A DNA stretch of 64,000 nucleotides from Candidatus Aenigmatarchaeota archaeon. Its GTDB lineage: Archaea; Aenigmatarchaeota; Aenigmatarchaeia; JACPZZ01. Below are positions 1 to 46,348 of this stretch, one piece after another. The stretch covers positions 97,932 through 161,931 of the forward strand of contig JACQNZ010000008.1 of assembly GCA_016202815.1 (NCBI GenBank). Direction: 5' to 3'. The position numbers were made by a program, and so were the translations under genes. The number at the start of each line of letters is the position of its first letter. Within the stretch, counting starts at the first letter, position 1. The notes below the pieces were generated by a model, which did no database searches, had not been told where the DNA came from, and was given only the letters and a program-made list of their open reading frames with translations.

Positions 1-1333
1 TCCCTAGTTAATCCAAAAGACGAATGCATCGACGCGACGACGATGTCAAATTCTTTCAAAAACCTGTCTGGAATGTCAATTTTTCCGTCGGCTTCTATGT
101 TGGCCTCGACGCCTTTGAATATCCTCAATTTGCCGGAGCCGTTTAGCTTGTCGATCTCTTTCCATTGTTTTCTGAAATCCTGCTCATCGAGCGCACCCGC
201 AACTTTGAGGTTTCCGCCGTGGTCCGTGATGCAGATGTACTCGTAACCGAGTTTTTCCGCGGCTACGGACATGTCTTTCGCGGTATTCGCACCGTCGCTC
301 CACACCGTATGCATTTGCAGGTCGCCTTTGATGGAATCGTATGCTATTAGGCTGGGAAGTTTGTGCGATCTTGCGGCGTCAATCTCACCTGTATTCTCGC
401 GCAGCTCGGGTTCGATGTAATCCAGTCCGAGCCTGTCGTAGATTTCTTCCTCTGTTTTTCCGGCGACCAGCTCGCCGCCTTTCATCAGTCCGTACTCGCT
501 TAATTTGAGCCCTTTGAAAATGGCGATCTTCCGCATCGCAACATTATGGTCTTTCGAGCCTGTGAAATATTGCAGCGCAGCGCCGAAGGCACTGTCATCA
601 AGTACGCGAATATCCACCTGCACGCCGCCCTTCAGGCGCACCGACGCCCTGGTCGGCCCGCGTGCAATGATCTCGCCGACGCCGTCCATTTTTGTGAAAA
701 AATCTATGACTTTGTCGTGTTTCGATGACGTAACCAAAATATCTATGTCGCCTATCGTTTCCTTCATGCGCCGCAGCGAGCCTGCGAAAACCACCCTGTC
801 TACGAAATCAAGCCCTCGCAGCCTTTGCACGATTTCATCGGCGATTGGAAGCGCTTTTGCGAGAAGCATCCTGCTTTTCGCTTTTCTAGCAAACTCGATG
901 CCGTCCAGTATTTTTTTCTCGCTCTTCTCGCCAAACCCATTCAGCTTCGCAATCCGATTCGCTTTCGCAGCCTTTTCAAGGTCATCCAGATTTTTTATTT
1001 TCAATTTCCGGTAAAGCAGTCCAATGCGCTTCGGGCCAAGTCCGCTTACAGACATCAGCGAATCCAGGTCAACAGGCAGCGATTTCTTCAGCTTTTCGTA
1101 ATACGGCAACCGCCCCGTTTCAAGAAATTCTGAAATCTTTTCCTCTGTGGCCGCACCGACGCCCGGAATGCTCCGCAGTTTTCCTTCGCGCCAGATCCCG
1201 GTTATGTCACGCTGCAGCGTTTCAATGGACTGCGCAGCCTTGCGATAAGCGCGCGGTTTAAACTCGACGTCCTGCATCTCCAGTATGTCGGCTATCTCGT
1301 ACAGTATTTTGGCGACTTCGGAGTTTTTCATAC
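1..1333 (-). CDS. polX: DNA polymerase X family (Pol beta-like nucleotidyltransferase plus PHP domain); C-terminus runs off the window start
   Basis: Reverse-strand translation from ATG at 1333: MKNSEVAKILYEIADILEM... with HhH region, 'GSLRRMKETIGDIDILV' Pol-beta palm motif and 'HTVWSDG...ICITDHG' PHP motifs. Not in the ORF track because its stop lies outside the window. Confidence 0.7.
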
Positions 1334-1369
1334 AATTACTTTTTAATAGGAACTGAAAGAAAAAGGCGG

Positions 1370-1528
1370 TTATTTCGCAATGGCCAGCGCGGTTATTTTC
1401 GGGTCGCACGCATTGTGCGTTCTGCAGAAATTCTCGCACTCTTTCGCGGTTCCGGCATCAGCGTATTTGAACCCGCATTCGTCGCAGGCAAAAACAGTTT
1501 TATCCCCCCACACCTTTGTGGATACCAT
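1370..1528 (-). CDS. small zinc-ribbon protein (52 aa), CxxC...CxxxH..C
   Basis: Hand translation MVSTKVWGDKTVFACDECGFKYADAGTAKECENFCRTHNACDPKITALAIAK. Below the ORF-track size cutoff. Overlaps the unlikely 5' extension of the ZIP ORF. Confidence 0.3.
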   Translation of the reverse strand: MVSTKVWGDKTVFACDECGFKYADAGTAKECENFCRTHNACDPKITALAIAK

Positions 1529-1591
1529 ACATTCCTATTGGATGCCTTATTAAAAAACAACTTAAATAAAAGCAAAAACAAATCAAACCTG

Positions 1592-2326
1592 ATGCTGGAC
1601 GTCTTCGTCTACGGGCTCGCAAGCGTTTTAGTAGTGAGTCTGATATCACTGGTCGGGATCCTTGCGATCCCTGCAAAATCAAAGCACCTTATTTACCTGG
1701 TTAGTTTCTCGGCAGGCGCGCTGTTCGGCGATTCTTTCATACACCTGCTGCCGGAGACCATGGAGATGGGATTTGACGGAACGACGCCGATATACATACT
1801 GGCCGGAATTGTCACGATGTTCGTGGTTGAGAAGATCATAAACTGGCACCACTCGCACGACATGCACAACAAAAGCCAGCACGTAAAGCCTTTCGTGTTC
1901 ATGAACCTGATCGGCGACGGCGTGCACAATTTCATCGACGGCCTTGTGATAGGCAGCAGCTACCTGGCCAGCGTACCGTTGGGCGTGGCCACCACTCTGG
2001 CAGTGGTATTCCATGAAATACCGCAGGAAATCGGGGATTTTGGCGTGCTTTTGAGGGGCGGGGTCAACCGTGGAAAGGCGATAATGCTTAACTTTTTTTC
2101 GGCGCTGGCGGCTGTGGCGGGTTTCTTGGTTTCGATGGCAATCAGCAGCTATGTGGGAAATTTTGTTTCTATGATGGTGCCCTTCACAATAGGAAGCTTC
2201 GTTTATATCGCAGGATCGGATTTGATACCTGAACTTCACAAGGAAAAGAGCGATAAGTCCGCAATGCAGCTCTTGTCGTTTGTCGCAGGCATGGCAGCCA
2301 TGTACGCCCTGCTTTTAATCGAATGA
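1592..2326 (+). CDS. zupT: ZIP family divalent metal (zinc) transporter
   Basis: Multi-TM protein with 'HNFIDGLVIG' and 'HEIPQEIGDFGVL' ZIP signatures. Internal ATG at 1592 (MLDVFVYGL...) chosen over the 1415 start. Confidence 0.75.
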   Translation: MLDVFVYGLASVLVVSLISLVGILAIPAKSKHLIYLVSFSAGALFGDSFIHLLPETMEMGFDGTTPIYILAGIVTMFVVEKIINWHHSHDMHNKSQHVKPFVFMNLIGDGVHNFIDGLVIGSSYLASVPLGVATTLAVVFHEIPQEIGDFGVLLRGGVNRGKAIMLNFFSALAAVAGFLVSMAISSYVGNFVSMMVPFTIGSFVYIAGSDLIPELHKEKSDKSAMQLLSFVAGMAAMYALLLIE

Positions 2327-2710
2327 TCAGAAGTAAACCAGTGCCCATAAAAGGGCGACAGCCACGGCAAGCTTGAACAAAGCCACCTTCTGGAACCATT
2401 TGTCAGACTTCTTCAAAACCAGCTTGATCGCATCCCTGTGTATGTCATTGAACATCAGGAAGCTTCCTGCAAGCAGCCCGGCCCCGAAAACAGAGACCAA
2501 AAAGCTTTGCAATCCCGCCAGCTTCACTACAAGAAGCGCGGTTATCAGGCCTGACGCAAACATCACAAGGCTGATTGCATACGACCAATCCTTGTTGATT
2601 TTTGAAAATTCCTTAAGCCAGGCTTTTGCTTTCTTCGGCGAGAGCACGGTTAAGGACCTGGTAAGTATCACCAGCGCGAGTAAAAGAGCCGCAACAGCCT
2701 TTAAGACCAT
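2327..2710 (-). CDS. hypothetical membrane protein
   Basis: 127-aa ORF with 3-4 hydrophobic helices, tightly packed against zupT. Confidence 0.45.
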   Translation of the reverse strand: MVLKAVAALLLALVILTRSLTVLSPKKAKAWLKEFSKINKDWSYAISLVMFASGLITALLVVKLAGLQSFLVSVFGAGLLAGSFLMFNDIHRDAIKLVLKKSDKWFQKVALFKLAVAVALLWALVYF

Positions 2711-2736
2711 AATTAAAATTAGCAGGGGTAATATAT

Positions 2737-3744
2737 ATGTATTTTCTCAGAGCTTATGGGTGGATTATGCTGATTAAGGACAGGCTTTACGGCCCCTTCG
2801 ACATAGGCGAAGAGGTTTTGGTCGAGTTAATCGGCTCCGATCCGGTTCAGCGCCTGAAAAAAATCGCGCAATACGGCGTTCCGGACGAATATTACGTGTA
2901 CAGGAATTACAGCCGCTATGAGCATTCAGTCGGCGTCATGCTGCTGGTGCGCAAACTCGGCGCAAGCGTCGAAGAGCAGGCCGCCGGCCTGCTTCATGAC
3001 GTCTCGCACACGGCATTCTCGCACGTCGTCGACTGGCTGCTCGGAACAGGCGAAAACGAGGACCACCAGGACAAAATTCACCAGAAAATATTCATGGAAT
3101 CTGAGCTGCCCGGAATATTGGAGCGGCACGGATTCGACGCAAAACGCGTGTCTGATTACAAAAACTTCCGGCTCGTGGAGCAGCCAACGCCGAAGCTGTG
3201 CGCGGACAGGGTGGATTATGCGCTGCGGGAATTTCAGGATTGGGCCGCGCCTTCCGTTGTGGCGGAGTGCGTTAATTCGCTTGCGGCAAATGATGGAAGG
3301 ATGGTATTCTCGTCAAAACCTGTAGCCAGGAATTTTGCAGAGGCTTTTTTGAAATGCCAGATGGTCCACTGGGGAGGCGCGCAAGCCACCGTAAGGTACA
3401 CGTTATTGTCTTCGGCTTTGCGTATTGCGATAGAAAACAAAATCATAACGCTGGAAGACCTGTTGAAGGATGACAGTTTCGTAATAGGCAAATTAAAAAG
3501 CTGCAATAACATTGAAGTGCAGAAGTATCTGGGTATGTTGGCAGACAAGAACCTATTGGTGGTAGAAGATCCGCACAACCCGCAGTACGTCATGAAGAAG
3601 AAATTCCGCTACGTGGATCCGGATTATCTTGAAAACGGTGAAGTATTCACATTGGGCAAAACAGATTTGGCGTTTGGAAAGCTGGTCGAAGAAAACAGGA
3701 AAATAAATGACGCCGGTTTGCGGTTGAGCATCGGGCGCATGTGA
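2737..3744 (+). CDS. HD-domain metal-dependent phosphohydrolase
   Basis: 'HSVGVMLL...LLHDVSHTAFSH' H..HD motif. Confidence 0.6.
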   Translation: MYFLRAYGWIMLIKDRLYGPFDIGEEVLVELIGSDPVQRLKKIAQYGVPDEYYVYRNYSRYEHSVGVMLLVRKLGASVEEQAAGLLHDVSHTAFSHVVDWLLGTGENEDHQDKIHQKIFMESELPGILERHGFDAKRVSDYKNFRLVEQPTPKLCADRVDYALREFQDWAAPSVVAECVNSLAANDGRMVFSSKPVARNFAEAFLKCQMVHWGGAQATVRYTLLSSALRIAIENKIITLEDLLKDDSFVIGKLKSCNNIEVQKYLGMLADKNLLVVEDPHNPQYVMKKKFRYVDPDYLENGEVFTLGKTDLAFGKLVEENRKINDAGLRLSIGRM

Positions 3745-3745
3745 G

Positions 3746-4510
3746 GTGTGCAAATTGAAGAACAGGTTTTTGGCAGGGTCTTCAGGGTTCCGTTACAGGA
3801 TAAGGCGGATCATCGAGAGCGCAGACTTGGTTGTGGAAATTTTGGACGCGCGCGATCCTTTCGGAACCAAAAACACGGAAGTGGAAAAATTTGTAAGGAT
3901 GTCGCACAAGAGGCTTCTGACAGTGGTTAACAAAGCAGACCTTGTTGGCGGGGTTGATTATCCGGAGTCTTCAAAGACCTGCGTAATATCCTCCAAAAAC
4001 CGCAAAAGCGCGGCCATCCTGAAAGACTTTATCAAAGCGAACCTTCCTAAAACGCCGGCACGCGTTGCAATTGTCGGATACCCCAATGTCGGCAAATCAA
4101 CGATTATAAATTTGTTGAAAGGCCGGAAGTCCGCTTCCGTTGCCCCGATACCGGGGCACACCAGAGGCGTGCAATGGATACGCATCGACGAGGACATCCT
4201 GCTTCTCGACTCGCCCGGAATCGTACCGAGCTACGAAAGGGACGAAGTTTCGATAGCTTTGAAGGGCGCGATCGAGGCCGACCAGGTAAAAGATCCTGAA
4301 CACGTTGCGCATGAAATTTTGGAGGGAATCCTGCACGCCGGCCCTGCGAAGATAGAAAAAGCGTACGACATTAAAGTTTCCTCCCGTGACCCGCACGAAA
4401 TACTGCGGTTGATCGCGCTGCGCCGCGGCCGCATCCTTAAAGGCCGCGAGCCGGACACAAGGAGCGCGGCGAAAACTGTCATCCGCGACAGGTACAAGGG
4501 AAAAATCTGA
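3746..4510 (+). CDS. circularly permuted GTPase (YlqF/RbgA-like ribosome biogenesis GTPase)
   Basis: Motif order G4 'VVNKADLV', then G1 'GYPNVGKST', then G3 'LLDSPGIV'. Confidence 0.65.
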   Translation: MCKLKNRFLAGSSGFRYRIRRIIESADLVVEILDARDPFGTKNTEVEKFVRMSHKRLLTVVNKADLVGGVDYPESSKTCVISSKNRKSAAILKDFIKANLPKTPARVAIVGYPNVGKSTIINLLKGRKSASVAPIPGHTRGVQWIRIDEDILLLDSPGIVPSYERDEVSIALKGAIEADQVKDPEHVAHEILEGILHAGPAKIEKAYDIKVSSRDPHEILRLIALRRGRILKGREPDTRSAAKTVIRDRYKGKI

Positions 4511-4539
4511 ATTTAAGCCTTGTTCACAATTAGATCTTT

Positions 4540-6147
4540 ATGTGGGTTAATTTTTTTCTGTCCCTGGGTTTCGCCGGGTTCTACACGCTCTGGGCTTTCT
4601 TCGTCGGAGTTGTGGCATCGTTCGGAATTTTCGGGAGAAGTCCGGTCCGGAATTCGGTAATGTCGTGGATTTTCGGGATTTTTTTGGTTTCATTGTCGCC
4701 TATAGGCTCGGTTGTTTTGGCGGCCTTTATCAGGATGTTCATATTCGGTTTGTCAAAACTTACAAAGGCTGAGATTGAGCGCATATTCGTTTTCGAAGAC
4801 GCCAGAGGGGCCAGACCGCGCAGGTTTTTGTGGGTGCTTGCGCCGTTCGGCATTCTTTTCGTCATGTCCGCGGCCACGGCGGTTTTATCCCCGCCCATGG
4901 AAGTGGAATGGTACAAAATGGGCGGCGCCGGCATAGTGGAATTAACCAGCGAGCCCTCGTCAACTGTGTCGGAAATAGCCTGGGACGATGTCAAAGGCAT
5001 GCGATTGGTATCGCAGGAATACGCCCTGCAGATACCGAAAACGCTGATAACAGAGACCGGTTGGAAATTATCCGACAGCTGGGACGGCGTATATCCCATC
5101 AACGGGACGCTGTACTGGGTTTCAAGCTACGAACCTGCAACTTTGATAAACAGCGGCAACCCGTCGCCCGCTTACGTACTGATCAGCGGGGAAGACCCTT
5201 CAAACAGGAAAAAAATCTACGAAAGCATAGAATATTCCGGCGAGCGCGGCAAGATGCTGGACATATTGTACCAGTTGTGGAAAGGAAAGATCAGGGACAT
5301 CAACGTTGTAGCGTGGCTCAATTACCCGTTTTTCGAGTTCGGCGATCCGATACTGGCACACAACGAAAAAGGTCCCGTGTGGATAAAGCCGGCAAAAATG
5401 AATTTCCCTACAATGTTCCTGGTGAGATTTTACACGGACCAGGTTGGCGTAATGACTATCGAAAACGACGGCAAAGTCAGTTTTTATTCCACGGAACAGA
5501 TACGCGAAGGCGGCGCGCCTCCGTGGCTCGAAAAACAGGTACTGATAGACGAGGGTTACAGCGAGCTGCGCGTTTACAAATGGGCCAAATACAAATACTG
5601 GACCAACTTCTTAAATTATTACTTCCAGCACGAAAATGTTTTTGAAATAGCGCAGGATTTGTACTTCCAATACGACAAGCAGAACGAAAGAAATTATGCG
5701 GTGATACAACTGGAACCGGAAGGCCGCGAACGCAAATCCATAACGCATTTCATCGAGATAGAATCATCCGGGAAAAACTTCGGCAACATTACGATATATG
5801 ATTCCCGCAGGCTCGAGCTGATCGGGCCCGAACGTGCTCTCGACGACGTCCGCGGCGAGGTCAGCATTTACAAGAACTGGTACCCCCTGCAGCCATTGTT
5901 CAAGAAAATAAAAGACGGATATTTCTATGTTGTTCCGGTGTATTCCGGCGACTTCGAGGCAATGGTATTGCGCGGCGTCGCCGTTGTAGATGCGAAGCGC
6001 GAGCAGGTTAAATTGTTCAAGTGGGCCGAGGTTCCGGAAGAATTGCAGCAGCCAGAAACAGCACAAAACGATTCTTTGGAAGGCTGTTCAATAATATCCA
6101 CTCAAAAAATAGACAATAAATTAAGAATAACTATGGAGTGCCAATAA
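4540..6147 (+). CDS. membrane-anchored hypothetical protein with large extracytoplasmic domain
   Basis: N-terminal TM helices, 535 aa, no recognisable catalytic motif. Confidence 0.45.
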   Translation: MWVNFFLSLGFAGFYTLWAFFVGVVASFGIFGRSPVRNSVMSWIFGIFLVSLSPIGSVVLAAFIRMFIFGLSKLTKAEIERIFVFEDARGARPRRFLWVLAPFGILFVMSAATAVLSPPMEVEWYKMGGAGIVELTSEPSSTVSEIAWDDVKGMRLVSQEYALQIPKTLITETGWKLSDSWDGVYPINGTLYWVSSYEPATLINSGNPSPAYVLISGEDPSNRKKIYESIEYSGERGKMLDILYQLWKGKIRDINVVAWLNYPFFEFGDPILAHNEKGPVWIKPAKMNFPTMFLVRFYTDQVGVMTIENDGKVSFYSTEQIREGGAPPWLEKQVLIDEGYSELRVYKWAKYKYWTNFLNYYFQHENVFEIAQDLYFQYDKQNERNYAVIQLEPEGRERKSITHFIEIESSGKNFGNITIYDSRRLELIGPERALDDVRGEVSIYKNWYPLQPLFKKIKDGYFYVVPVYSGDFEAMVLRGVAVVDAKREQVKLFKWAEVPEELQQPETAQNDSLEGCSIISTQKIDNKLRITMECQ

Positions 6148-6150
6148 TTC

Positions 6151-6936
6151 CTACAGCGTAATATTCAACTTAACTAATTCGGAGTGAATCACGTTTCCAG
6201 TATTATCCACGGTTTTTTCAAAATTTTCTATACTTATTCCTTTTTGGTTTACTTGTTCAACTACGTCTAAAATACCCTTGAAAAACTGGGAGCTACCTTC
6301 TACAAACAATGTTCTTAAAAACCAGTGCATTTCACCTAGTGCAAGCGAAACGCAACTTCCACATTTTAAGGCTATGGTCTGAAATCCGGTCGCTCTGTAT
6401 ATAGTTCCTACAGCAGTGTATGTGAGTTTTCCAAATGCCGCCACCGATATTATGGCTATTTCACCGCCAAAAACAGCTGTTGACTTGTAAAATTCGTTAA
6501 CAGAGTTGGAATCGTTCTCGTTGACATTATTTGCGGCGGCAATGACTTTATTATAATTGTCCACAAGAGGCGCATATTCTGTAATTACCCTAGATATTTT
6601 TTCATACCCTTCTCTGGTTTTTGGTAATTCAGGTATTTTCGCGCCTGTTTGCTCTTCCAATATTTTTGATAATTTGTTCGCGTTTTCAGCAAATTCAAAA
6701 TATTTTTCAGAAGTATTCAAAGTGTTGTCATCGATTTGGGATAGTTTAGCTACTTGCTGTGGAAATTCCTTGTTTATCAGTTTTGTATAACTCGTAGGGA
6801 TATTATCAGAGGGTATTTTTGGTTTTGAATCACACCCAGATACTAAAACAACGGCGATGATCAAAAAAATGGATAAAAACTCACTAAATGGTTTCGTTGT
6901 CATTTCTACGAATACTGTCTCCACGAGTGCTTGCAC
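6151..6936 (-). CDS. putative lipoprotein / secreted hypothetical protein
   Basis: N-terminal hydrophobic segment ending in a '...LVSGC' lipobox-like motif. Confidence 0.4.
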   Translation of the reverse strand: MQALVETVFVEMTTKPFSEFLSIFLIIAVVLVSGCDSKPKIPSDNIPTSYTKLINKEFPQQVAKLSQIDDNTLNTSEKYFEFAENANKLSKILEEQTGAKIPELPKTREGYEKISRVITEYAPLVDNYNKVIAAANNVNENDSNSVNEFYKSTAVFGGEIAIISVAAFGKLTYTAVGTIYRATGFQTIALKCGSCVSLALGEMHWFLRTLFVEGSSQFFKGILDVVEQVNQKGISIENFEKTVDNTGNVIHSELVKLNITL

Positions 6937-7235
6937 TTCGGGTTAGTGCACCGGAAAAATAATGTCGGCGCCTCGTCCCCGCTTCTCGTCTGCTGAAGCC
7001 ACCAGAACGCTTCCGTGTGCGCGCACTTCGGGCACGTCACTACGGTTTTTGGCAGGCTGGAAAATTCCTTTTCAACAACAACAACCTCCGGCTCCTCGTG
7101 GCTTATGTGCTCCGAAATCTTGAATGATTTTTTCTGGAATTGTTTTTTCGTGCCGCAACCCCTGCACACTAGCAGGGCTTTGCCCGCCTTTTTCTGCGGC
7201 ATCATCATGCTCGAGCATTTCTGGCAAAATTCCAT
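6906..7235 (-). CDS. tfs: transcription factor S / RNA polymerase subunit M
   Basis: N- and C-terminal zinc ribbons 'CQKCSSMM...CRGCG' and 'CPKCAHTEAFWWLQQTRSGDEAPTLFFRCTNPKCKHSW' (TFIIS-type). Confidence 0.75.
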   Translation of the reverse strand: MEFCQKCSSMMMPQKKAGKALLVCRGCGTKKQFQKKSFKISEHISHEEPEVVVVEKEFSSLPKTVVTCPKCAHTEAFWWLQQTRSGDEAPTLFFRCTNPKCKHSWRQYS

Positions 7236-7250
7236 TTTATCTCCCCTTTA

Positions 7251-7300
7251 ATCAAGAATGATATTCAACTGGATTGTTTAAATACGATATCATTCTTGAT
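7251..7300. promoter_or_regulatory. perfect 14-bp inverted repeat ATCAAGAATGATAT-N22-ATATCATTCTTGAT in the tfs upstream region
   Basis: Read directly from the sequence. Lies 16 bp upstream of the tfs start codon and downstream of the signal peptidase stop. Confidence 0.4.
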
Positions 7301-7330
7301 TCCTTTTCGGTTATCAGCTATATATCTTAG

Positions 7331-7819
7331 TTATCTGTTGACGGCCGGCGAAAACGCCCTGCACACAGCGGGGACGCTGTCGCACACTGTTATTTTTATC
7401 AGGCCCGCGTAAGGTATTACCAAAACAGATTTTCCGACAATGTCCTTCGCGGATATCTGCTTTTCCCATTCATGCTGCACTCCCCGGTTGTTGTCGCCGA
7501 GCGTTTGGAACGTGCCGTCATCGTTTATCTTGTACACCCTGTGTATGACCGGCAGCGATTGGGATAACGTGTCAAAAACAATGACATCCCCTATTTTTAT
7601 ATCTTGCGGTTCGGCGTGCTTGACTATCACAAGGTCTCCCCTGTTAATGCTCGGTGACATGGATTCTGAAATGACGTCGATGACAGGCCTTTCCGTGCCT
7701 AACAAAAGAATCAATGCCTGGTAGATGAGAACCGCGATGAACACGCCCAATGCTGCGTAGGCGACTGTTTCCACAACATCGCGCAGGACGCTTCCGGGTT
7801 TTTTCTTAAGCCCTGCCAT
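7331..7819 (-). CDS. signal peptidase I (archaeal Sec11-type)
   Basis: N-terminal TM anchor and 'SESMSPSINRGDLVIV' (SxSMxP box B/C). Confidence 0.65.
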   Translation of the reverse strand: MAGLKKKPGSVLRDVVETVAYAALGVFIAVLIYQALILLLGTERPVIDVISESMSPSINRGDLVIVKHAEPQDIKIGDVIVFDTLSQSLPVIHRVYKINDDGTFQTLGDNNRGVQHEWEKQISAKDIVGKSVLVIPYAGLIKITVCDSVPAVCRAFSPAVNR

Positions 7820-8396
7820 AAGATTCGCCTTTCGCGACGCCGGACGCTATCAGGTGCGCAACACGCAGCGGCTCCGGTATTAGCGCCCTTGTAGAGGACA
7901 GTTTTATCACGTCTTCCGCGCCTTTCCTATTAATACCGCATGTCTGGTAATAAATACTTCTTCCGTTGATTTTCGTTTCGAGCGGTGCGCCGCATTTTTC
8001 TATCAGCGCCCATTTCTCGTCACCGTCTTTCAGGTTGGTGAGAGCGCGTTTTATTTTTGAAAAGTCCGGCATCTTCCTGCTTATTGCTATGACTGCCATG
8101 TTCGTCTCCTTGTGAAGGCGTTCAATGTCCACGACATTGAAGCCGCCCAGCGTTATGCCGTCGAGCATTATTATTCGCAATTGCTCCCTGTGCCGTGCAT
8201 TGTTTATGCTGGTAAAAATTTTTTTTGTAGCGTCGTTGCCGTCTACCCTTATTCTGGTGGAAAGCAGCCCGTCCATCCAGAACCCGCCGCGGAATATTGC
8301 CCCGAATATCGGGACTGTTTTATCACCCTTGAAAAAAGGGCCGTCATCCCAGCCGATTATCCTGACCTCTTTTTTGAGAAAGCGGAAGTGTGGCAT
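7806..8396 (-). CDS. DUF99/UPF0215 family protein
   Basis: N-terminus 'VRIIGWDDGPF' resembles the conserved start of UPF0215 proteins. Confidence 0.4.
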   Translation of the reverse strand: MPHFRFLKKEVRIIGWDDGPFFKGDKTVPIFGAIFRGGFWMDGLLSTRIRVDGNDATKKIFTSINNARHREQLRIIMLDGITLGGFNVVDIERLHKETNMAVIAISRKMPDFSKIKRALTNLKDGDEKWALIEKCGAPLETKINGRSIYYQTCGINRKGAEDVIKLSSTRALIPEPLRVAHLIASGVAKGESYGRA

Positions 8397-8837: not shown

Positions 8838-9530
8838 GTGGTTTCTGGGATGGCGGGCAACGGTGAACGGGAAAAAGAAATACTCATTGCAGTAGCCTCT
8901 AAGCTGGTTTCGGCTGGCGCGCCAGCCGAACTTTTTGGCAGCGTCATGGATGCCGCGTCAGGAATAGTCAGGCCTGCGCAGGAGGAAACAAAGGCCGCGG
9001 ATGAGCAATGGCACCAGCCCGGAGATTACGGCATGTTTAGGACCAGTTTCCCCACCGCAATTGTAATGTTCGATGGGGCGGAAACCCATCTGACGGAAGC
9101 GGCTGGCGCGCTTAGAGAGTTGTACGCGGGCACGGTTCCGGATTTCTCCTCGGTTAAATCAATAGAAAGGAGCATTAAAAAACTGGAAGGAAGCCTCAAC
9201 GCCTGGCACAAAAAATACGGCGATGACCTAGTGATGCAGGACACAGGCTTAGGTTACGTTGGCGTTAGTACCGTGGGGGAGGCTTACCTTGCAAAGAGGT
9301 TCGGGCTCACAGTGGGCGAGGCTGTTGGAGCCATAAAAGCGTTGATGAATATGAAGTTCGTGGAACGCCGCGTTTACCTTACCAATGACGAACTTCCTCT
9401 TTGCAGGCTTTTCATCGTGGACTGCAGGCCGCAGATAGAAACGGACCCGCGGTTCAGCCTGGGATACAGGGTGTACAAACATCCAACCGGCGGCAACGGC
9501 GCTGCCAAAGGCGTTGCGAAGGCGGCGTAA
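8838..9530 (+). CDS. hypothetical protein
   Basis: 230-aa ORF with protein-like composition, no recognised motif. Confidence 0.4.
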   Translation: MVSGMAGNGEREKEILIAVASKLVSAGAPAELFGSVMDAASGIVRPAQEETKAADEQWHQPGDYGMFRTSFPTAIVMFDGAETHLTEAAGALRELYAGTVPDFSSVKSIERSIKKLEGSLNAWHKKYGDDLVMQDTGLGYVGVSTVGEAYLAKRFGLTVGEAVGAIKALMNMKFVERRVYLTNDELPLCRLFIVDCRPQIETDPRFSLGYRVYKHPTGGNGAAKGVAKAA

Positions 9531-19158: not shown

Positions 19159-19875
19159 TTAGTTCTTGTTCTTCACTGCCAGCTGCCACTTTTTGTTCAG
19201 CGGAACCCACATGGCAGCGGCTGACGCTACGGCAAAATCAGGATCCATTGATCCGTACATTTCCTTGGCTAATTCTTGGGCGGTGCGGCCTTCAATACGG
19301 AGTTCTTTCACCGCGTCGCGGATATGCCTGAATTCCGGCGCTCGCGGCTCGTCGCTTTCGCCCGTGTACGTTGACAGTAAGCCTGCCACGCCTTTGAGCG
19401 GGTAATGGCCGGCGGCAAGAAACTCGGATTCCTCGTTTCCAGCGGTTATGATTCCAAGCGCGACATCGTTGCCTGGTATGCAGACCATTCCGGCTATCCT
19501 CGGAGTGTTGTATCTGTCTCCGACGCGTCCCTCATGGCCCCAGCGCCTGAGCCCCCTGCTTATCGCGCTTATTGCGGTATTGTTGGCGTCGTGCCTGCGC
19601 AAGTATCCATCGAATATGGAACCGGTCTGTTTTCCGTTGCTGACAACGCCTATCCCCTTTATCGCGCTGACCATTATCGCATCGTATACGAGCCTTTCCG
19701 CCTCGGTTTTTTGCTCCGGCGTCATCTCGCCATACGGCTCAATAGCCACACGAGTTCCATGAACGGCTGCGATTCTGGACCTGCTGGACGCTGATCGCCC
19801 GGACAGTCCGTATAGAAGAACAGGATTCCCGTCATGTGTGGCGCCGACGCCTACCAAACGGCCCAAATAAGCCAT
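19159..19875 (-). CDS. purO: IMP cyclohydrolase, archaeal type
   Basis: 'MAYLGRLVGVG...LYGLSGRSASSRSR', 'VSNGKQTGS', 'NTPRIAGMV' align with the PurO family. Confidence 0.6.
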   Translation of the reverse strand: MAYLGRLVGVGATHDGNPVLLYGLSGRSASSRSRIAAVHGTRVAIEPYGEMTPEQKTEAERLVYDAIMVSAIKGIGVVSNGKQTGSIFDGYLRRHDANNTAISAISRGLRRWGHEGRVGDRYNTPRIAGMVCIPGNDVALGIITAGNEESEFLAAGHYPLKGVAGLLSTYTGESDEPRAPEFRHIRDAVKELRIEGRTAQELAKEMYGSMDPDFAVASAAAMWVPLNKKWQLAVKNKN

Positions 19876-37286: not shown

Positions 37287-37398
37287 CGATGTTATAATTC
37301 TATCTTTAAGCCGGTCATGTTTCCCTGTCCGCCTATGATATAAATAAGTTAATCGCAATTAACTGAAGTGATAAAATGAGCGGAGAGAAGCGTGGGGA

Positions 37399-40191: not shown

Positions 40192-40194
40192 TTT

Positions 40195-40225
40195 TTTCAG
40201 TGGGGAGACCGTGATTTGAACACGG
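40195..40225. repeat. 31-bp direct repeat = duplicated 3' end of tRNA-Pro (T-arm + acceptor + 6-nt trailer); att-like left boundary
   Basis: tttcagtggggagaccgtgatttgaacacgg versus tttcagtgggaggaccgtgatttgaacacgg at 42263..42293, 2 mismatches. No matching 5' tRNA half nearby. Confidence 0.5.
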
Positions 40226-40303
40226 ATTGCCGCCGGTTGGCCATACGGGATATTCAGGCCAGCCGTAGATGGTTATATAAACCTAAGTTAATACATATTA
40301 ACT

Positions 40304-40852
40304 ATGGTTTATACATCTAAACTAAGGTTAACATCGTTGCAGAAGGAAATAATGCACTTCTTTTTCGTGAACGCAGGCAAAGCGTTTAACGCGCGGGAGT
40401 TGGCTATGTCGGTTGGGGTCAGCCAGCCGGCAATTGCTAAAGCGATTCCGCTACTGGAAAGCAGGGATTTTATCAGTGTATCGAAGGACAAGAAATCCAG
40501 GAGGCTGTCAATCGAATTGAACAGGGAAAACCCTCTTGTCATTGGTTTGAAAAGGGCCGATAATATAGGGCAACTGTACGAGTCCGGTTTAACAGAATTT
40601 CTAAGGGGAAAATTCCCGGGTTGCGCCGTTATCGTATTTGGCAGCTTCGCCAAGGGCGAGGATACGCATAAATCGGATATCGATATAGCCGTTGTTGGAG
40701 TGAAAGGCAAAACTGTTGATCTTAACGGCTTCGAAAAGACATTCATGAAAGAAATAAGGATAAATTTCTACAAGTCATTTAAGGAGATAAACAGGGAATT
40801 GAAAGGCAATATCCTCGGGGGAATCCTTCTGTCAGGATGGGTCGAATTATGA
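40304..40852 (+). CDS. minimal nucleotidyltransferase (MNT-like) with N-terminal HTH
   Basis: 'VIVFGSFAKGEDTHKSDIDIAVV' GS..D.D nucleotidyltransferase motif. Confidence 0.6.
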   Translation: MVYTSKLRLTSLQKEIMHFFFVNAGKAFNARELAMSVGVSQPAIAKAIPLLESRDFISVSKDKKSRRLSIELNRENPLVIGLKRADNIGQLYESGLTEFLRGKFPGCAVIVFGSFAKGEDTHKSDIDIAVVGVKGKTVDLNGFEKTFMKEIRINFYKSFKEINRELKGNILGGILLSGWVEL

Positions 40853-40935
40853 AACCTCTTAAAACGTTTGAATGGTATTTGGTATACTAATCAACAATTA
40901 GTATGTTTATATATTAGTGCTAACTAACAGTTAGT

Positions 40936-42198
40936 ATGATAGTTAAGGAAACCCTTAGGCAGATAGTAACCCAACAGAAACATGAAAATGACCGTGTTGA
41001 AGAGACCGTGAAAAGGAACGTGTTGGACGAAATACTAAAATGGTTCAACGATAACAGGATAATAATTCTAACCGGACTGAGGAGGAGTGGAAAATCTACC
41101 CTCTTAAAACAGATAATGAGAGAAAAGAAGGGCTGGTGTTATGTCAACTTCGAAGATGAAAGGTTCATAGAATTTAGGTCGCAAGATTTTGAGCTATTGA
41201 ACGAGGTTCTTGTCGAAATCTATGGAAACTCGAACATATACTTCTTCGACGAAATACAGAATATTGACAAGTTCGAAACGTTCGTGAGAAGACTACAGGA
41301 TCAGGGAAAGAAGATCGTCATAACAGGCTCCAACGCATCCCTTTTGAGCAAAGAGCTCGGTACAAGACTCACGGGGAGGTACAAATCCTTCGAAGTATAC
41401 CCATTTTCCTTTTCTGAATACCTAATGTTTAGGAATATCTCTCCGTCTAAAGACTGGCCATATCTGACCGGAAAAAAAGTGATATTGTTAAAAGCATTTG
41501 AGAAATATATGATTGAAGGCGGTTTGCCGGAATATCTGAAAAATAAGGACAAGGAATACGTAAGAACCGTTTATGAGAACATTCTTTACCGCGACATTAT
41601 CGCAAGGTATTCGATAAAGATGCAGAAGGTTATTAAGGAACTGTTTAATATATTCGCAACAAACATATCTTCGCAGTTTACCTACAACTCATTGAAGAAA
41701 ACTCTGGGATTATCTAATTCTATAACAGTCAAAGAGTATGCCTCGTACCTAAGCAACTCTTACCTGTTTTTCGAGCTGCAAAGGTTCGATTTTTCCGTGA
41801 GAAGGCAGTTGAATTTTCCAAAAAAGATATATGTTGTGGATCCGGCATTCAGCCTGCTCGGCGGGTTCAATTTCTCCGCTAACAGGGGTCGTCTGTTGGA
41901 AAATTTGGTCTTTATAGAGTTGAAGAGGCGAAAAATGGAATCGTATTATTATTCGGATAAAAACGAGTGTGACTTTGTATTGAAGAGCGGTTCCAAAATT
42001 AACGCAGCGATTCAGGTATGCTACTCTTTGGATAAGGGCAACCGTGAAAGGGAGATTGGCGGGTTGGTTGGTGCAATGGAGAAATTCAAGCTAAGAAAAG
42101 GCGTCATATTGACGATGGAGCAGGAGGAAGAGATTCCGGTGAAAGGCGGAAAAATAAGGGTTGTGCCTGTTTTCAAGTGGCTATTGGGATTCGATTGA
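40936..42198 (+). CDS. AAA+ ATPase of the DUF4143/COG1373 family
   Basis: Walker A 'GLRRSGKSTLL', Walker B 'IYFFDEIQ'. C-terminal DUF4143-like region. Confidence 0.7.
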   Translation: MIVKETLRQIVTQQKHENDRVEETVKRNVLDEILKWFNDNRIIILTGLRRSGKSTLLKQIMREKKGWCYVNFEDERFIEFRSQDFELLNEVLVEIYGNSNIYFFDEIQNIDKFETFVRRLQDQGKKIVITGSNASLLSKELGTRLTGRYKSFEVYPFSFSEYLMFRNISPSKDWPYLTGKKVILLKAFEKYMIEGGLPEYLKNKDKEYVRTVYENILYRDIIARYSIKMQKVIKELFNIFATNISSQFTYNSLKKTLGLSNSITVKEYASYLSNSYLFFELQRFDFSVRRQLNFPKKIYVVDPAFSLLGGFNFSANRGRLLENLVFIELKRRKMESYYYSDKNECDFVLKSGSKINAAIQVCYSLDKGNREREIGGLVGAMEKFKLRKGVILTMEQEEEIPVKGGKIRVVPVFKWLLGFD

Positions 42199-42268
42199 AA
42201 ATCAAAGAGACTATACCCATTGCTCAAAGGGTGAGTTCCAACACCCGGCTGGCCCAATTTTGTTTCAG

Positions 42269-42393
42269 TGGGAGGACCGTGATTTGAACACGGGTTATAG
42301 CCAGTTTGTTTTGAGTGACTGACACATACTATAAGTATGTGTCTAGCTCAACACCCCAAGGCTATGTCTTAGACCAAGCTAGACCATCCTCCC
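42269..42393 (-). tRNA. tRNA-Pro (anticodon GGG) with a 50-nt intron at the canonical 37/38 position
   Basis: Hand-folded. Acceptor GGGAGGA/TCCTCCC, D-arm GTCT/AGAC, anticodon stem TAGCC/GGCTA, loop TTGGGG^T, T-arm CCGTG-TTCAAAT-CACGG, discriminator A, no encoded CCA. Intron carries a perfect hairpin GACACATACT-TATA-AGTATGTGTC. Confidence 0.7.
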
Positions 42394-42507: not shown

Positions 42508-43341
42508 TTGGTGAATCGTTTGGACATATTTAACACAACTGCGAATCAAGCAAGAAAACTTTTACTAAGCCTTTTAATGACAGACGGTTCAGTATCGTAC
42601 ATCAAGAAAAGGAAACACTATCTGATCAGAATATACGGATATGATAAAAGTATACATGACCTGTTCACATTACTAGTCAAAAAAGGTTTTGGAATAGAAA
42701 AACCCACATGGTATTTCGCTTCTTATGGTAACACGGTAAATGCAACGTGTTATCAACGATGGGCTAAAACTGAAATAGTTAAAACACTTTTTCAATTGTC
42801 GCCTTCTTTCAGGAAGAAGCCCGATAAGAATGAGAGCGCCGAAGACTTTTTAGCATCTTCAAAACCTACGATAAAGTCGATAATGGGCTGTTCCAGACAA
42901 GTCAGGGAATTGTTTTTCAGAATAGCCATGAGTTGTGATGGTTACATAACACTTCTATACGGCAGGAAGCCCCGCCTAGGTATGGCTTGCGCCCATCCAC
43001 AATTAGTAAATGAATGGCTTGAGTTAGCAAGGTCGATAGGCTTGGAATTCAAAATAGAGAAGGATAGAGCCACTTGGAGCGGTATTCACGGCCTTGAAAC
43101 TGTATCCATGGATACTATAGTTAAATTCCACGAAATGGGAGGATTCTTCCCGGAAGACGTTGAAGTGTGTAGAAGCAAGAGATACAAAGGTTATAAAAAG
43201 AATGATATACTTCTAAAGGGTATAGAAATCCATAACAGCTGTATCAGCTCCCATCGTCCAGCCCGGTCAATCGAAAGAACTGATAGGACGTTGGCTTCTC
43301 AGGCCGAAGACACGGGTTCAAATCCCGTTGGGAGCATTTAA
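42508..43341 (+). pseudogene. degenerate LAGLIDADG-like ORF whose 3' end reads through tRNA-Glu
   Basis: Motifs 'LLLSLLMTDGSV' and 'FFRIAMSCDGYITL'. The last ~30 codons are the tRNA-Glu sequence, so the true C-terminus is probably lost. AT-rich. Confidence 0.35.
43247..43336 (+). tRNA. tRNA-Glu (anticodon CTC) with a ~15-nt insertion in the D-loop (possible non-canonical intron)
   Basis: Acceptor GCTCCCA/TGGGAGC, D-stem GTCC/GGAC enclosing a 26-nt loop, anticodon stem TTGGC/GCCGA, loop TTCTCAG, T-arm ACGGG-TTCAAAT-CCCGT, discriminator A. Confidence 0.65.
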
Positions 43342-46005: not shown

Positions 46006-46203
46006 AAACACATGCATCGGAAAATGAAGCATACCGGAAAGCTTGAAGCATATCGTATTAACTAGAAGCATGCCGATACAGTATACGGCATGCTTCAGTT
46101 GGAACGCGATATGCTTCAGTTAACGGCGGTATGCTTCCAGCTGTCAGGCATGCGTTTTAGTTGGCGGTAGACCGAAACATATGCATACACAAAGCATATG
46201 TTT
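46006..46203. promoter_or_regulatory. symmetric phased array of GAAGCAT/ATGCTTC heptamers around palindrome GAAGCATGCCG-N10-CGGCATGCTTC, plus second palindrome GAAACATATGC-N9-GCATATGTTTC placed at the tRNA-Leu TATA position
   Basis: Left-facing GAAGCAT at 46026, 46045, 46065 (degenerate GAAACAC at 46006). Right-facing ATGCTTC at 46090, 46111, 46131 (degenerate ATGCGTT at 46150). Spacings 19-21 bp, mirror-symmetric about 46080/81. Second palindrome 46173..46203 has its spacer 23-31 bp upstream of tRNA-Leu +1. Confidence 0.5.
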
Positions 46204-46214
46204 CAATCAGAAAC

Positions 46215-46348
46215 GCGGGGGTAGCAAAGCTCGGTTAAGGACTAAAAACAGTTGCCGTTTTGCATGCAACTGTTTCAGCCGACTACATGCGCAGGCTTGA
46301 GGGGTCTGTGGCTTAGTGCCTTCGTGAGTTCAAATCTCACCCCCCGCA
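46215..46348 (+). tRNA. tRNA-Leu (anticodon GAG) with a ~48-nt non-canonical intron in the D-arm region
   Basis: Acceptor GCGGGGG/CCCCCGC, anticodon stem CAGGC/GTCTG, loop TTGAGGG, long variable arm (GGC-TTAGT-GCC), T-arm GTGAG-TTCAAAT-CTCAC, discriminator A. 5' segment GCGGGGGTAGCAAAGCTCGGTTAAGG is separated from TGCG-CAGGC by an insert containing hairpin CAGTTGC...GCAACTG. Confidence 0.6.

Follow-up and report, generated by a model that had tools for sequence, protein, structure and literature searches.

A composite gene cassette between a complete tRNA-Pro gene and a free-standing tRNA-Pro 3' half in an Aenigmarchaeote

In the stretch of DNA analysed here, a 64-kb window on a contig of Candidatus Aenigmatarchaeota archaeon, a tRNA-Pro(GGG) gene and a partial copy of its 3' end enclose about 2 kb of sequence with two genes, one for a nucleotidyltransferase (NTase) and one for an ATPase. 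The first-pass annotation had read the two copies as the attL/attR footprint of an integration into the tRNA 3' end, and the two genes as a possible defence or addiction module. The question raised by this locus is whether the repeat was made by the arrival of the genes or was already there before them, and what the second copy is.

Sequence comparison within the window confirmed a 31-nt repeat derived from the tRNA-Pro 3' end with two mismatches (29/31 identical; Table 1), which covers the final 25 nt of tRNA-Pro(GGG) and 6 nt of its trailer. The mismatches are adjacent and both fall in the acceptor 3' strand (TCTCCCC versus TCCTCCC), and the 17-nt T-arm CCGTGTTCAAATCACGG is matched exactly at just two sites in the window, which are the two repeat copies. 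A repeat search detected a looser similarity over 47 nt at 83% (40192-40238 versus 42260-42306), extending into the 3' strand of the anticodon stem and the last bases of the intron. ARAGORN and Rfam run on the raw window miss intron-bearing tRNAs, tRNA-Pro(GGG) among them because of its 50-nt intron, and a tRNA-Glu was miscalled as Ser; the tRNA calls given here are based on manual structure and spliced sequences. The acceptor stem of tRNA-Pro(GGG) is GGGAGGA/TCCTCCC, its precursor folds with z = -4.6, and the spliced form is a cloverleaf that ARAGORN identifies as tRNA-Pro(ggg). The second copy indeed lacks a 5' tRNA half, which was found neither within 400 nt nor anywhere in the 64-kb window.

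Table 1 Features of the locus, in window coordinates
Feature	Position	Strand	Content
Left repeat copy, overlapping the orphan unit	40195..40225	-	last part of tRNA-Pro and copy of the trailer
Orphan tRNA-Pro 3' half (type 2)	40201..40235	-	C GGCGG CAAT CCGTG TTCAAAT CACGG TCTCCCC A; tRNA positions 38-73
Junction sequence, 37 nt	40236..40272		no homologue in relatives
HTH-nucleotidyltransferase unit	40273..40881	+	TATA-like box 40273-40281; palindrome AGTTAAT-N4-ATTAACT 40286-40303; ORF 40304..40852
Partner-gene 5' remnant	40849..40890	+	MKPLKTFEWYLVY, then stop; 4-nt overlap with the NTase stop codon
DUF4143 AAA ATPase unit	40883..42198	+	conserved promoter/operator of ~55 nt; ORF 40936..42198
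Partner-gene 3' remnant	42202..42234	+	SKRLYPLLKG, then stop; directly after the ATPase stop codon
tRNA-Pro trailer	42255..42268	-	CTGAAACAAAATTG; counterpart of the 12-13-nt spacer in relatives
Right repeat copy	42263..42293	-	tRNA-Pro T-arm, acceptor 3' strand and discriminator, then 6 nt of trailer
tRNA-Pro(GGG) (type 1)	42393..42269	-	exon 1 42393..42354; intron 42353..42304; exon 2 42303..42269

The left copy belongs to a larger unit that runs from the 3' strand of the anticodon stem through the T-arm and the acceptor 3' strand to the discriminator, that is, a free-standing tRNA half with a perfect T-arm, an acceptor strand and discriminator A and with no contiguous other half. Its acceptor and anticodon-stem strands are its own and differ from those of the adjacent tRNA-Pro(GGG). 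We aligned the window copy with the orphan units of three related genomes (L001, L002 and L083) and with the tRNA-Pro(CGG) genes of two metagenome contigs (L081 and L082). The T-arm and acceptor strand of the orphan are identical to those of these contiguous, intron-bearing tRNA-Pro(CGG) genes, and a mature tRNA containing the unit would be expected to end in ...GGUAGUAAUCCGUGUUCAAAUCACGGUUUCCCCA. The leader sequence 5' of the unit reads ...GUAUGGCCAACC in the window, CUUCAAACAAUC in L002 and CUCCAGAACGAAU in L083. In L001 (contig CAYZCD010000011.1), an intron-like 15 nt and TGGGG precede the unit at the contig end; this version is possibly contiguous, and the contig end cuts it before the anticodon (GGG or UGG) and the 5' exon.

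The orphan unit is identical at 35/35 positions among L001, L002 and L083, whereas the trailers there are 21-36% identical (Fisher test, unit versus trailers, p = 3e-6 to 7e-5). The 18 type-2-specific positions are likewise all identical in the three genomes at the orthologous site, where the adjacent bases are randomised. Third-codon positions of the racemase gene are 45-54% identical among all four genomes, so that synonymous sites are saturated between the three genomes with identical orphan units (a third-position difference of ~50%). Because the unit is unchanged across such distances, it is probably under purifying selection and thus functional. The second copy is therefore a distinct unit, identical in three diverged genomes, and not a decaying duplicate of the tRNA 3' end. 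The window copy is 30/35 identical to the relatives' unit and all five differences are transitions, which may reflect relaxed constraint; compared with its flanks it is only weakly more conserved (13/18 versus 4-8/14), which counts against the explanation favoured below.

The first-pass annotation had suggested that an empty site be sought in relatives, and such a site was found, but with both repeat units in place of an intact tRNA-Pro alone. L002 has tRNA-Pro(GGG), the spacer CTTCAAACAATC and the orphan unit TGGTAGTAATCCGTGTTCAAATCACGGTTTCCCCA with no cargo between them; L083 has the same arrangement with the spacer CTCCAGAACGAAT, again with no cargo, and in L084 and L085 both T-arms are present as in L083. 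In these sites tRNA-Pro and orphan are 12-13 nt apart, whereas in the window ~2 kb sit between the tRNA-Pro spacer and the orphan unit. The 2 kb are thus an insertion relative to the relatives, as first proposed; the unoccupied sites (L002, L083/L084/L085) hold two copies and not the single att copy expected of an integration into the tRNA. Because both units stand this close without cargo in related Aenigmarchaeota, the repeat predates the cassette; the 31-nt repeats are neither a product of this insertion nor its attL and attR. That the event was an insertion here and not a deletion elsewhere is argued by parsimony over four roughly equidistant genomes, together with the composite nature of the insert.

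This composite nature becomes apparent from the two genes. The first is an HTH-minimal nucleotidyltransferase, as annotated. Its ORF matches Pfam NTP_transf_2 (34.4 bits versus a cut-off of 21), Polbeta and MarR, its N-terminus is a MarR-like winged HTH (wHTH) and it carries the catalytic motif FGSFAKGEDTHKSDIDIAV (minimal nucleotidyltransferase, GSx(10)DxD-like). Homology of the NTase unit to L096, L097 and L098 begins at the TATA box and ends at about codon 11 of a partner gene. In most contexts (L096, L097, L099 and 7/8 P0162 contigs), this partner is an ORF of 144-149 aa that overlaps the NTase gene by 4 nt. The partner protein has no Pfam, PADLOC (HEPN included) or PDB sequence match, and may be HEPN-like, judging solely from an RNxxxY-type motif read in it. 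An intact partner gene is absent from the window, where its first ~11 and last ~10 codons survive. The 5' remnant, in which codons 1-11 remain (40849..40881), matches MKPLKTFDEYLKDG and MKPLKTFSEYLKEG, with which the 144-aa partners of L096 and L099 begin. The 3' remnant gave a tblastn match to partner residues 135-143, and its DNA, stop codon included, aligns to the final stretch of the partner genes in L096, L098 and L099.

The second gene encodes a COG1373/DUF4143 AAA ATPase, again in agreement with the first reading, with Pfam AAA_14 and DUF4143. At E <= 1e-80 it has more than 5,800 homologues, and identity is about 70% from one archaeal phylum to another. Its promoter/operator holds the palindrome ATACTAAT-N5-ATTAGTAT. 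Homology of the ATPase unit with L083, L090 and L092 starts at TATACTAATC and ends at the stop codon, and the proteins are 87%, 92% and 82% identical, respectively. In relatives the ATPase is a solo gene with its own promoter at other loci, and no HTH-NTase gene was seen beside the orthologous ATPases (82-92% identity) in L083, L090 and L092. A profile search of both proteins against PADLOC, proposed in the first pass, did return matches, PDC-M05A for the NTase (3e-13) and a full-length match to PDC-S01 for the ATPase (PDLC04787; 1.6e-114 over residues 23-417), both of them candidate families. To our knowledge, a defence role of the PDC-S01 / AAA_14-DUF4143 ATPase, a candidate system, has been tested nowhere, and we found nothing specific in the literature on DUF4143 in defence.

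The ATPase unit occupies the interior of the partner gene, the remnants of which flank it at both sides. The co-occurrence of NTase and ATPase, suggested as a check, was seen in none of the five other genomes L083, L090, L092, L096 and L098 and in none of eight P0162 contexts. The cassette is thus pieced together from two gene units that move independently of each other, and the ATPase unit has replaced all but the first ~11 and last ~10 codons of the NTase's partner gene. Since partner remnants flank the ATPase and the ATPase is solo elsewhere, the pairing is to be read as an accident in which one gene landed inside the other, and not as a two-gene system; the supposed module of NTase and DUF4143 ATPase does not survive this comparison, in which the partner ORF is the usual neighbour of the NTase.

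As had been noted, no integrase was found: profile searches of 18 ORFs between 33.1 and 52.4 kb of the window returned no integrase or transposase domain, and neither terminal repeats nor a convincing target duplication were found at the cassette. A GC-rich hairpin lies at the left junction (GGTTGGCC, 40235-40242, and GGCCAGCC, 40257-40264). The sequence GGCCAGCCG (40257-40265) is the inverted 9-mer of 42246-42254, a match of marginal significance for which we estimate a chance of ~0.05 for the two junction windows. This 9-nt inverted repeat as a TIR, and a 9/10 direct repeat CCGG(T/C)TGGCC (40233-40242 / 42245-42254) as a TSD, were both considered and rejected as evidence, the estimated chance being about 0.05-0.1; GCTGGCC also occurs in the 3' UTR of the partner gene in L098, which was a further reason for the rejection.

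The mobility of the cargo genes, assumed in the first pass, is evident from the same NTase operon and the ATPase gene standing at other loci of related genomes. In L098, L083 and L096 these genes form cassette arrays, and each repeat between the cassettes closes with the 3' terminus of tRNA-Glu (ACTTCGTTTTATCTGCC(N)GTTGGGAGCA). These repeats are ~90% conserved between these genomes with a degenerate T-arm, no integrase is in view near the arrays, and viral contigs scanned for the repeat gave 0 matches. The arrays suggest a cassette-accretion system in DPANN genomes, with small defence/TA cassettes between tRNA-Glu-derived repeats.

The explanation that we favour, with a probability of about 0.62, is a prior tandem of tRNA-Pro(GGG) and an orphan half, followed by a composite insertion, with the orphan being probably functional. 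In this Aenigmarchaeota lineage, a free-standing tRNA-Pro 3' half follows tRNA-Pro(GGG) at one conserved locus; in the window genome a cassette of the NTase operon and the ATPase unit has entered between both tRNA units, after the spacer, and this would have severed the orphan half from the tRNA-Pro promoter. As to function, the reading that we prefer, although we put it at somewhat below even odds, is that the orphan supplies the 3' part of a tRNA-Pro that is split and trans-spliced; it would be co-transcribed with tRNA-Pro(GGG) in the relatives, and its 5' half would lie elsewhere in the genome.

We looked for the 5' half in the window and at all 107 loci, by matching GGGGAGA...CCGCC patterns in which G.U pairs were tolerated, by D-arm motifs and by scanning for T-arm/acceptor sequences, and recovered nothing beyond the trivial reverse complement; none was found in the 64-kb window, within 400 nt of the orphan or in 20 kb of L083, which speaks against the split-tRNA proposal. 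The first-pass annotation had named a second tRNA with a distant 5' half as a finding that would overturn its att reading: a distinct tRNA-like half is present, and its 5' half was not found in the window. The 5' exon of the neighbouring tRNA-Pro(GGG) was tried as a partner and rejected, the chimera not being a cloverleaf (z about 0). Also against a split tRNA, the ~90% conservation of the tRNA-Glu-derived repeats means that high conservation of a tRNA-derived repeat can arise from mobile elements.

The rival that survives best, although we consider it less likely, is that the orphan is a non-functional relic, either of an old partial tandem duplication or of the attR of an element lost long ago from tRNA-Pro. 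It would be kept similar by gene conversion from a full-length tRNA-Pro paralogue with an identical 3' exon, or because mobile elements repeatedly recombine there, and the cassette would have hit a recombination hot spot. Archaeal genomes often carry pieces of tRNA next to tRNA genes as scars of integration or rearrangement (Chan et al. 2011, PMC3218864; Sugahara et al. 2012, PMC3293823), both sides of the orphan unit vary between genomes, and the tRNA-Glu-derived repeats attest conservation at the level of elements in this lineage. The spacer also resembles the 3' end of the intron, a likeness that a duplication of intron end, 3' exon and trailer would leave behind, and the missing 5' half fits a relic as well. 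However, a relic is difficult to reconcile with the 18/18 type-2-specific positions kept identical amid randomised neighbours. Where the orphan and the adjacent tRNA differ, gene conversion by that tRNA could not preserve the orphan's bases. The orphan T-arm is perfect whereas that of the tRNA-Glu repeats is degenerate, and the tRNA-Pro T-arm/acceptor sequence was found in 0 of the viral contigs scanned. No further tRNA-Pro-derived copies bounding the variable region downstream of the orphan were found.

The first reading, an integrase-less element of NTase and ATPase integrated as one module in the tRNA-Pro 3' end, with attL in the tRNA and attR at 40195..40225, is improbable. It accounts well for an intact tRNA that is followed, beyond the cargo, by part of its own 3' end on the same strand, for the extent of that copy, which covers the downstream half as archaeal att sites usually do, and for the 6-nt trailer CTGAAA common to both window copies; the relatives' arrays, with the same genes bounded by tRNA-Glu-3'-end repeats and no integrase in view, point the same way. 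But precise excision would leave one copy, whereas L002 and L083 have both, with 12-13-nt spacers free of NTase or ATPase remnants. The second copy, moreover, differs in its acceptor and anticodon-stem strands, a state conserved in other genomes, and the cargo consists of two units of separate origin that meet at a gutted gene and are adjacent in 0/5 other genomes.

We regard as more improbable still that the orphan is an alternative cis 3' exon of tRNA-Pro(GGG), the 5' exon being spliced to either one to give two isodecoders. Ahead of the second unit, the spacer looks like the end of the intron (AAACAAAC versus AAACAATC/AACGAAT), the L083 5' acceptor strand GGGGGGA pairs with both 3' strands using G.U pairs, and ARAGORN accepts the chimeric molecules as tRNA-Pro; in the window, where the cassette separates the units, the strand has A4 and pairs with type 1 only, as this idea would have it. 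Nevertheless, folding the chimeras gives no cloverleaf (z = -0.5 and -0.1), their anticodon stem would have an A28xA42 or A28xG42 mismatch and wobble pairs, and the acceptor compatibility depends on one position in one genome. We know of no precedent for alternative cis tRNA exons in archaea. Finally, an assembly artefact, in which the cassette was mis-joined between the two 31-nt repeats of this metagenome-assembled genome, is hardly credible: short-read Logan contigs of the same population (L087 and L088) do end near the repeat, but L087, an independent assembly, runs from the LRR gene through the orphan into the NTase promoter, as far as 40303, and the right junction (ATPase to tRNA-Pro), which comes from the source assembly alone, is biologically coherent, with its partner-gene remnant and spacer-like trailer.

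Known systems resemble parts of this locus. Integration into archaeal tRNA genes leaves att repeats of the downstream half (Reiter 1989 and She 2002, as cited in PMC3218864), and here too a tRNA and an orphan downstream half lie in the same orientation around foreign genes without an integrase, while relatives have textbook-like tRNA-Glu arrays with the same cargo genes. Different from such scars, both copies are present in unoccupied sites, the orphan has a sequence of its own that is conserved and without signs of decay, and the cargo joins two units, one of which has replaced a gene of the other from within. For tRNA-Thr(GGU) of Caldiarchaeum subterraneum, a route from intron-containing to split tRNA via a mobile element was proposed (Sugahara et al. 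2012, PMC3293823), and there, as here, ~1.8-2 kb of inserted DNA lie between a tRNA gene and a tRNA fragment. The fragment in C. subterraneum is, however, a 5' fragment and the insert encodes a recombinase that occurs six times in the genome (PMC3293823), whereas in our case a 3' half is present, with conservation from genome to genome, and no recombinase is encoded in the inserted DNA.

Split tRNA genes are described from Nanoarchaeum equitans, Caldivirga maquilingensis and Desulfurococcales, and the species listed with them are all hyperthermophiles (Chan et al. 2011, PMC3218864). Like their 3' halves, the orphan starts at the canonical intron position 37/38 with T-arm, acceptor and discriminator intact, a possibly contiguous intron-bearing version occurs in L001, and the host is a DPANN archaeon. 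Unlike them, neither a 5' half nor a complementary leader/trailer was found in the sequence searched, the host is a groundwater Aenigmarchaeote and the 3' half abuts a complete tRNA-Pro gene. A literature search found nothing specific on split tRNAs in Aenigmarchaeota.

Both cargo genes belong to already catalogued candidate families. The NTase resembles MNT-HEPN type VII / PDC-M05 in its minimal NTase motif, its PDC-M05A and weak NCBIfam MntA matches (31.4 versus a cut-off of 60 bits for MntA, which sets it apart as well) and the small overlapping ORF that follows in most other contexts; it differs in its N-terminal MarR-like wHTH and in a partner that has no Pfam or PADLOC HEPN match and is destroyed in the window. 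The ATPase, with its full-length match and solo gene with own promoter, is like PDC-S01 / COG1373 and shows no feature that distinguishes it from the AAA_14 + DUF4143 family.

The observation of most lasting value is the conserved free-standing tRNA-Pro 3' half beside a complete tRNA-Pro in several Aenigmarchaeota. If it does belong to a split tRNA, split tRNAs would extend beyond hyperthermophiles into a mesophilic groundwater DPANN lineage, and the contiguous (L001-like), adjacent and cassette-separated states could be compared to see how tRNA genes become split. The window would then be a natural 'experiment', in which a defence-gene insertion uncoupled the half from its promoter and drift has begun. 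The tRNA-Glu-repeat cassette arrays of the relatives merit a separate study.

The 31-nt repeat in which the first-pass annotation saw attL/attR sites of a site-specific integration at tRNA-Pro(GGG) is genuine: 40195..40225 matches the T-arm, acceptor 3' strand, discriminator and 6 nt of trailer of the tRNA at 29 of 31 positions, and the window holds exactly two instances of the 17-nt T-arm. At lower identity the match runs on to 47 nt, reaching the 3' strand of the anticodon stem and the final bases of the intron, so that the second copy has the complete layout of a tRNA 3' exon (the orphan unit). As had been claimed, no 5' half accompanies it, either within 400 nt or elsewhere in the 64-kb window. 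In the raw window, the tRNA-Pro(GGG) was missed by both ARAGORN and Rfam; the spliced sequence forms a cloverleaf and is called tRNA-Pro(ggg) by ARAGORN, and the precursor folds with z = -4.6 relative to shuffles. Its 50-nt intron corresponds to the 15-nt intron of the related contigs L002 and L083 plus a ~35-nt hairpin insertion (GCTAGACACATACTTATAGTATGTGTCAGT). In metagenome contig L081, tRNA-Pro(CGG) is closely preceded by a near-identical hairpin (3853-3879), and the hairpin may be mobile, as a small palindromic element.

Judged by its flanking racemase, the window belongs to Candidatus Aenigmatarchaeota, which are DPANN archaea known from groundwater MAGs. The window and the related contigs L001, L002 and L083 are roughly equidistant (racemase 75-78% identical in protein and 45-54% at third codon positions). 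On the minus strand of L002, tRNA-Pro(GGG) is followed by CTTCAAACAATC and then TGGTAGTAATCCGTGTTCAAATCACGGTTTCCCCA; L083, a 605-kb contig, has the same arrangement with the spacer CTCCAGAACGAAT, and both T-arms are also present in two Logan contigs of its organism (L084 and L085). Because both repeats lie 12-13 nt apart without cargo in these relatives, a single site-specific integration cannot have made them, and precise excision would leave only one copy, whereas L002 and L083 have two. The unoccupied site thus holds both units and not the tRNA alone, and, as had been noted, no integrase domain was found in the 18 ORFs scanned between 33.1 and 52.4 kb; on both counts the locus does not behave as the footprint of an integrative element. 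The trailer of the window tRNA-Pro (CTGAAACAAAATTG) still resembles the spacer of the relatives, which indicates that the 2 kb was inserted after the spacer, in front of the orphan unit. The left junction of the insert is reproduced in an independent short-read contig, L087. Both L087 and L088 (Logan contigs of the source population, four sequencing runs) stop at or just past the orphan unit, consistent with the 31-nt repeat breaking k-mer assemblies, which bears on MAG contiguity at this locus.

Features of the tRNA-Pro locus in the window and copies of the tRNA-Glu-derived repeat in related contigs
Feature	Sequence	Position	Strand	Basis or remark
tRNA-Pro(GGG), 50-nt intron after position 37	window	42393..42269	minus	spliced fold; ARAGORN on spliced form
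Hairpin inside tRNA-Pro intron	window	42318..42347	minus	comparison with L002/L083 intron
Orphan unit, C GGCGG CAAT CCGTG TTCAAAT CACGG TCTCCCC A	window	40235..40201	minus	full tRNA 3' exon layout
Partner C-terminal remnant, SKRLYPLLKG-stop	window	42202..42234		directly after ATPase stop; matches TKRIYPLLRK-stop, including stop
~45-nt repeat, three copies	L098	~2700-2755, ~7835-7881, ~9005-9052
~45-nt repeat	L083	17440-17487; partial copy 19578-19591
~45-nt repeat	L096	7770-7812

The 35-nt orphan unit is identical in L001, L002 and L083, whereas identity drops to 21-36% over the 14 nt after it; comparing the 18 positions outside the T-arm with this flank gives Fisher p = 3e-6 to 7e-5. The window copy, the only one separated from tRNA-Pro, agrees at 30 of 35 positions, and its five differences are all transitions. 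Gene conversion from the adjacent tRNA could account for the shared T-arm but not for the positions that differ from that tRNA, namely the acceptor strand (TCTCCCC versus TCCTCCC) and the anticodon-stem strand (GGCGG versus GGCTA). From this conservation we infer that the orphan unit has a host-level function, and its most natural role may be the 3' half of a split tRNA-Pro. Both the free-standing state of the half and its conservation agree with that reading, on which a 5' half would lie elsewhere in the genome. The possibility that the neighbouring 5' exon and the orphan unit form one tRNA was rejected, because the minimum-free-energy folds were not cloverleaves and z was about 0, though ARAGORN tolerates the chimera. 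Two metagenome contigs (L081 and L082) carry tRNA-Pro(CGG) genes that are contiguous, contain an intron and have a T-arm and acceptor strand identical to those of the orphan unit, and the orphan-unit trailer of L001 (TGGACTTCAATATAAAT) also matches that of the L082 gene. In L001 the unit is preceded by intron-like TTTGAAAAAACAATT and TGGGG up to the contig end, and this version may be a contiguous gene.

If the orphan unit is half of a split tRNA, such tRNAs would extend to a mesophilic DPANN archaeon; those of Nanoarchaeum, Caldivirga and Desulfurococcales, otherwise a close parallel, are all from hyperthermophiles (PMC3218864). The closest published parallels also include archaeal tRNA-linked integration scars and, as a separate case, the tRNA-Thr locus of Caldiarchaeum, in which a mobile insert of 1.8 kb has a tRNA fragment on one side and a tRNA gene on the other, an arrangement proposed as a route to split tRNAs (PMC3293823).

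Domain matches bore out the two predicted ORFs of the insert, a nucleotidyltransferase (NTase; MarR-like HTH and NTP_transf_2) and a DUF4143 ATPase (AAA_14 and DUF4143). The closest NTase loci are in L096 and L098 (91% and 85% protein identity), and homology to them begins at a TATA-like box at 40273 and ends ~30 nt into the next gene. A 144-149-aa partner ORF, overlapping the NTase stop by 4 nt, comes next in the genomes of the closest homologues and in 7 of 8 contexts of a homologue with 77% identity; the partner, which gave no profile hit, is split in two in L098's own assembly and displaced in one short contig. The window keeps only its start (MKPLKTFEWYLVY and a stop, versus MKPLKTFDEYLKDG...) and a C-terminal remnant. 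Homology of the ATPase unit starts at 40883 (TATACTAATCAAC...), ~55 nt upstream of the ATG, and ends exactly at the stop codon at 42198. Since partner remnants lie on either side, the ATPase unit took the place of the middle of the partner gene, and its position next to the NTase is secondary. Consistently, ATPase homologues in L083, L090 and L092 (87%, 92% and 82% identity) lie at unrelated loci with no adjoining HTH-NTase gene, and the proposed two-gene module is not upheld. In PADLOC the ATPase falls under candidate PDC-S01 (1.6e-114); the NTase falls under PDC-M05A (3e-13) and, against MntA, scores below the cut-off. The cargo is thus unremarkable, a pair of catalogued candidate defence/TA genes of which one has landed in the operon of the other.

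The ATPase (40936..42198) has >5,800 homologues at E <= 1e-80, which share ~70% identity across Aenigmarchaeota, Woesearchaeota, Nanoarchaeota and Thermoplasmata. Compared within one pair of genomes, it is 87% identical versus 77% for the housekeeping racemase, suggesting frequent horizontal transfer. The NTase start is immediately preceded by the palindrome AGTTAAT-N4-ATTAACT (40286..40303), which recurs upstream of a small ORF before the racemase (37347..37364), and one in the ATPase promoter (40884..40904, ATACTAAT-N5-ATTAGTAT) is conserved in four genomes; all of these are likely operator sites.

Integration of these genes at a tRNA 3' end, not sustained at tRNA-Pro in the window, found partial support at tRNA-Glu in the relatives. 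A ~45-nt repeat, ATTCATATCGGCTAACTTTAACTTCGTTTTATCTGCC(T)GTTGGGAGCA, aligns with the downstream half of tRNA-Glu, ending in its last 12 nt (CCGTTGGGAGCA), with a degenerate T-arm. In L098 three copies divide a group of a 337-aa gene, a DUF4143 ATPase, two small ORFs and an NTase-HEPN pair from the 182-aa NTase with its partner; in L083 the genuine tRNA-Glu is followed by the 337-aa gene and ATPase and then the repeat, and in L096 the repeat lies upstream of the NTase operon. The repeats thus part tandemly arrayed small defence/TA cassettes, among them the NTase operon and DUF4143 ATPase that also occur in the window. Such a layout is classic for serial integration at a tRNA 3' end, and the 16-20 kb covered showed no integrase. 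What interest remains lies in these arrays and in the conserved orphan half. L096 also holds a plasmid-like stretch upstream of the NTase cassette (1-7700; Prim-Pol/Zn-ribbon primase and a TIR_2-domain gene), and L098 a FokI-cleavage-domain gene and two further NTase-HEPN-like pairs; both regions resemble defence islands.

No copy of the tRNA-Glu-derived repeat is present in the window, and at the tRNA-Pro insertion neither a terminal repeat nor a target duplication was convincing; the short GC-rich 9-10-mers of its junctions are within chance. The neighbours encode class I LysRS, a rhomboid protease, an M50 protease, the Asp/Glu racemase and a flavin reductase. A LAGLIDADG_3 homing-endonuclease-like ORF (42508..43341, plus) fills the gap between tRNA-Pro and tRNA-Glu and is absent from the matching gap of L083 (~235 nt); its frame crosses the entire tRNA-Glu gene before reaching its stop codon (43339-43341). 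This tRNA-Glu(CUC) (43247..43336, plus) has a ~15-nt D-loop insertion and is miscalled tRNA-Ser(aga) by ARAGORN, whereas that of L083 has instead a long intron at the anticodon loop, so that intron positions vary between close relatives. A tRNA-Leu(GAG)-like gene (46215..46348, plus) with a ~45-nt D-loop intron is called by no tool. Related nested palindromes (GAAGCATATG.../GAAACATATGC...GCATATGTTTC, flanked by CTAG/CAG-like ends) occur in the window (46170-46210) and in L083 (14500-14700); they cluster in spacers adjoining tRNA-Pro, tRNA-Glu and tRNA-Leu genes and could be processing signals or MITE-like repeats.
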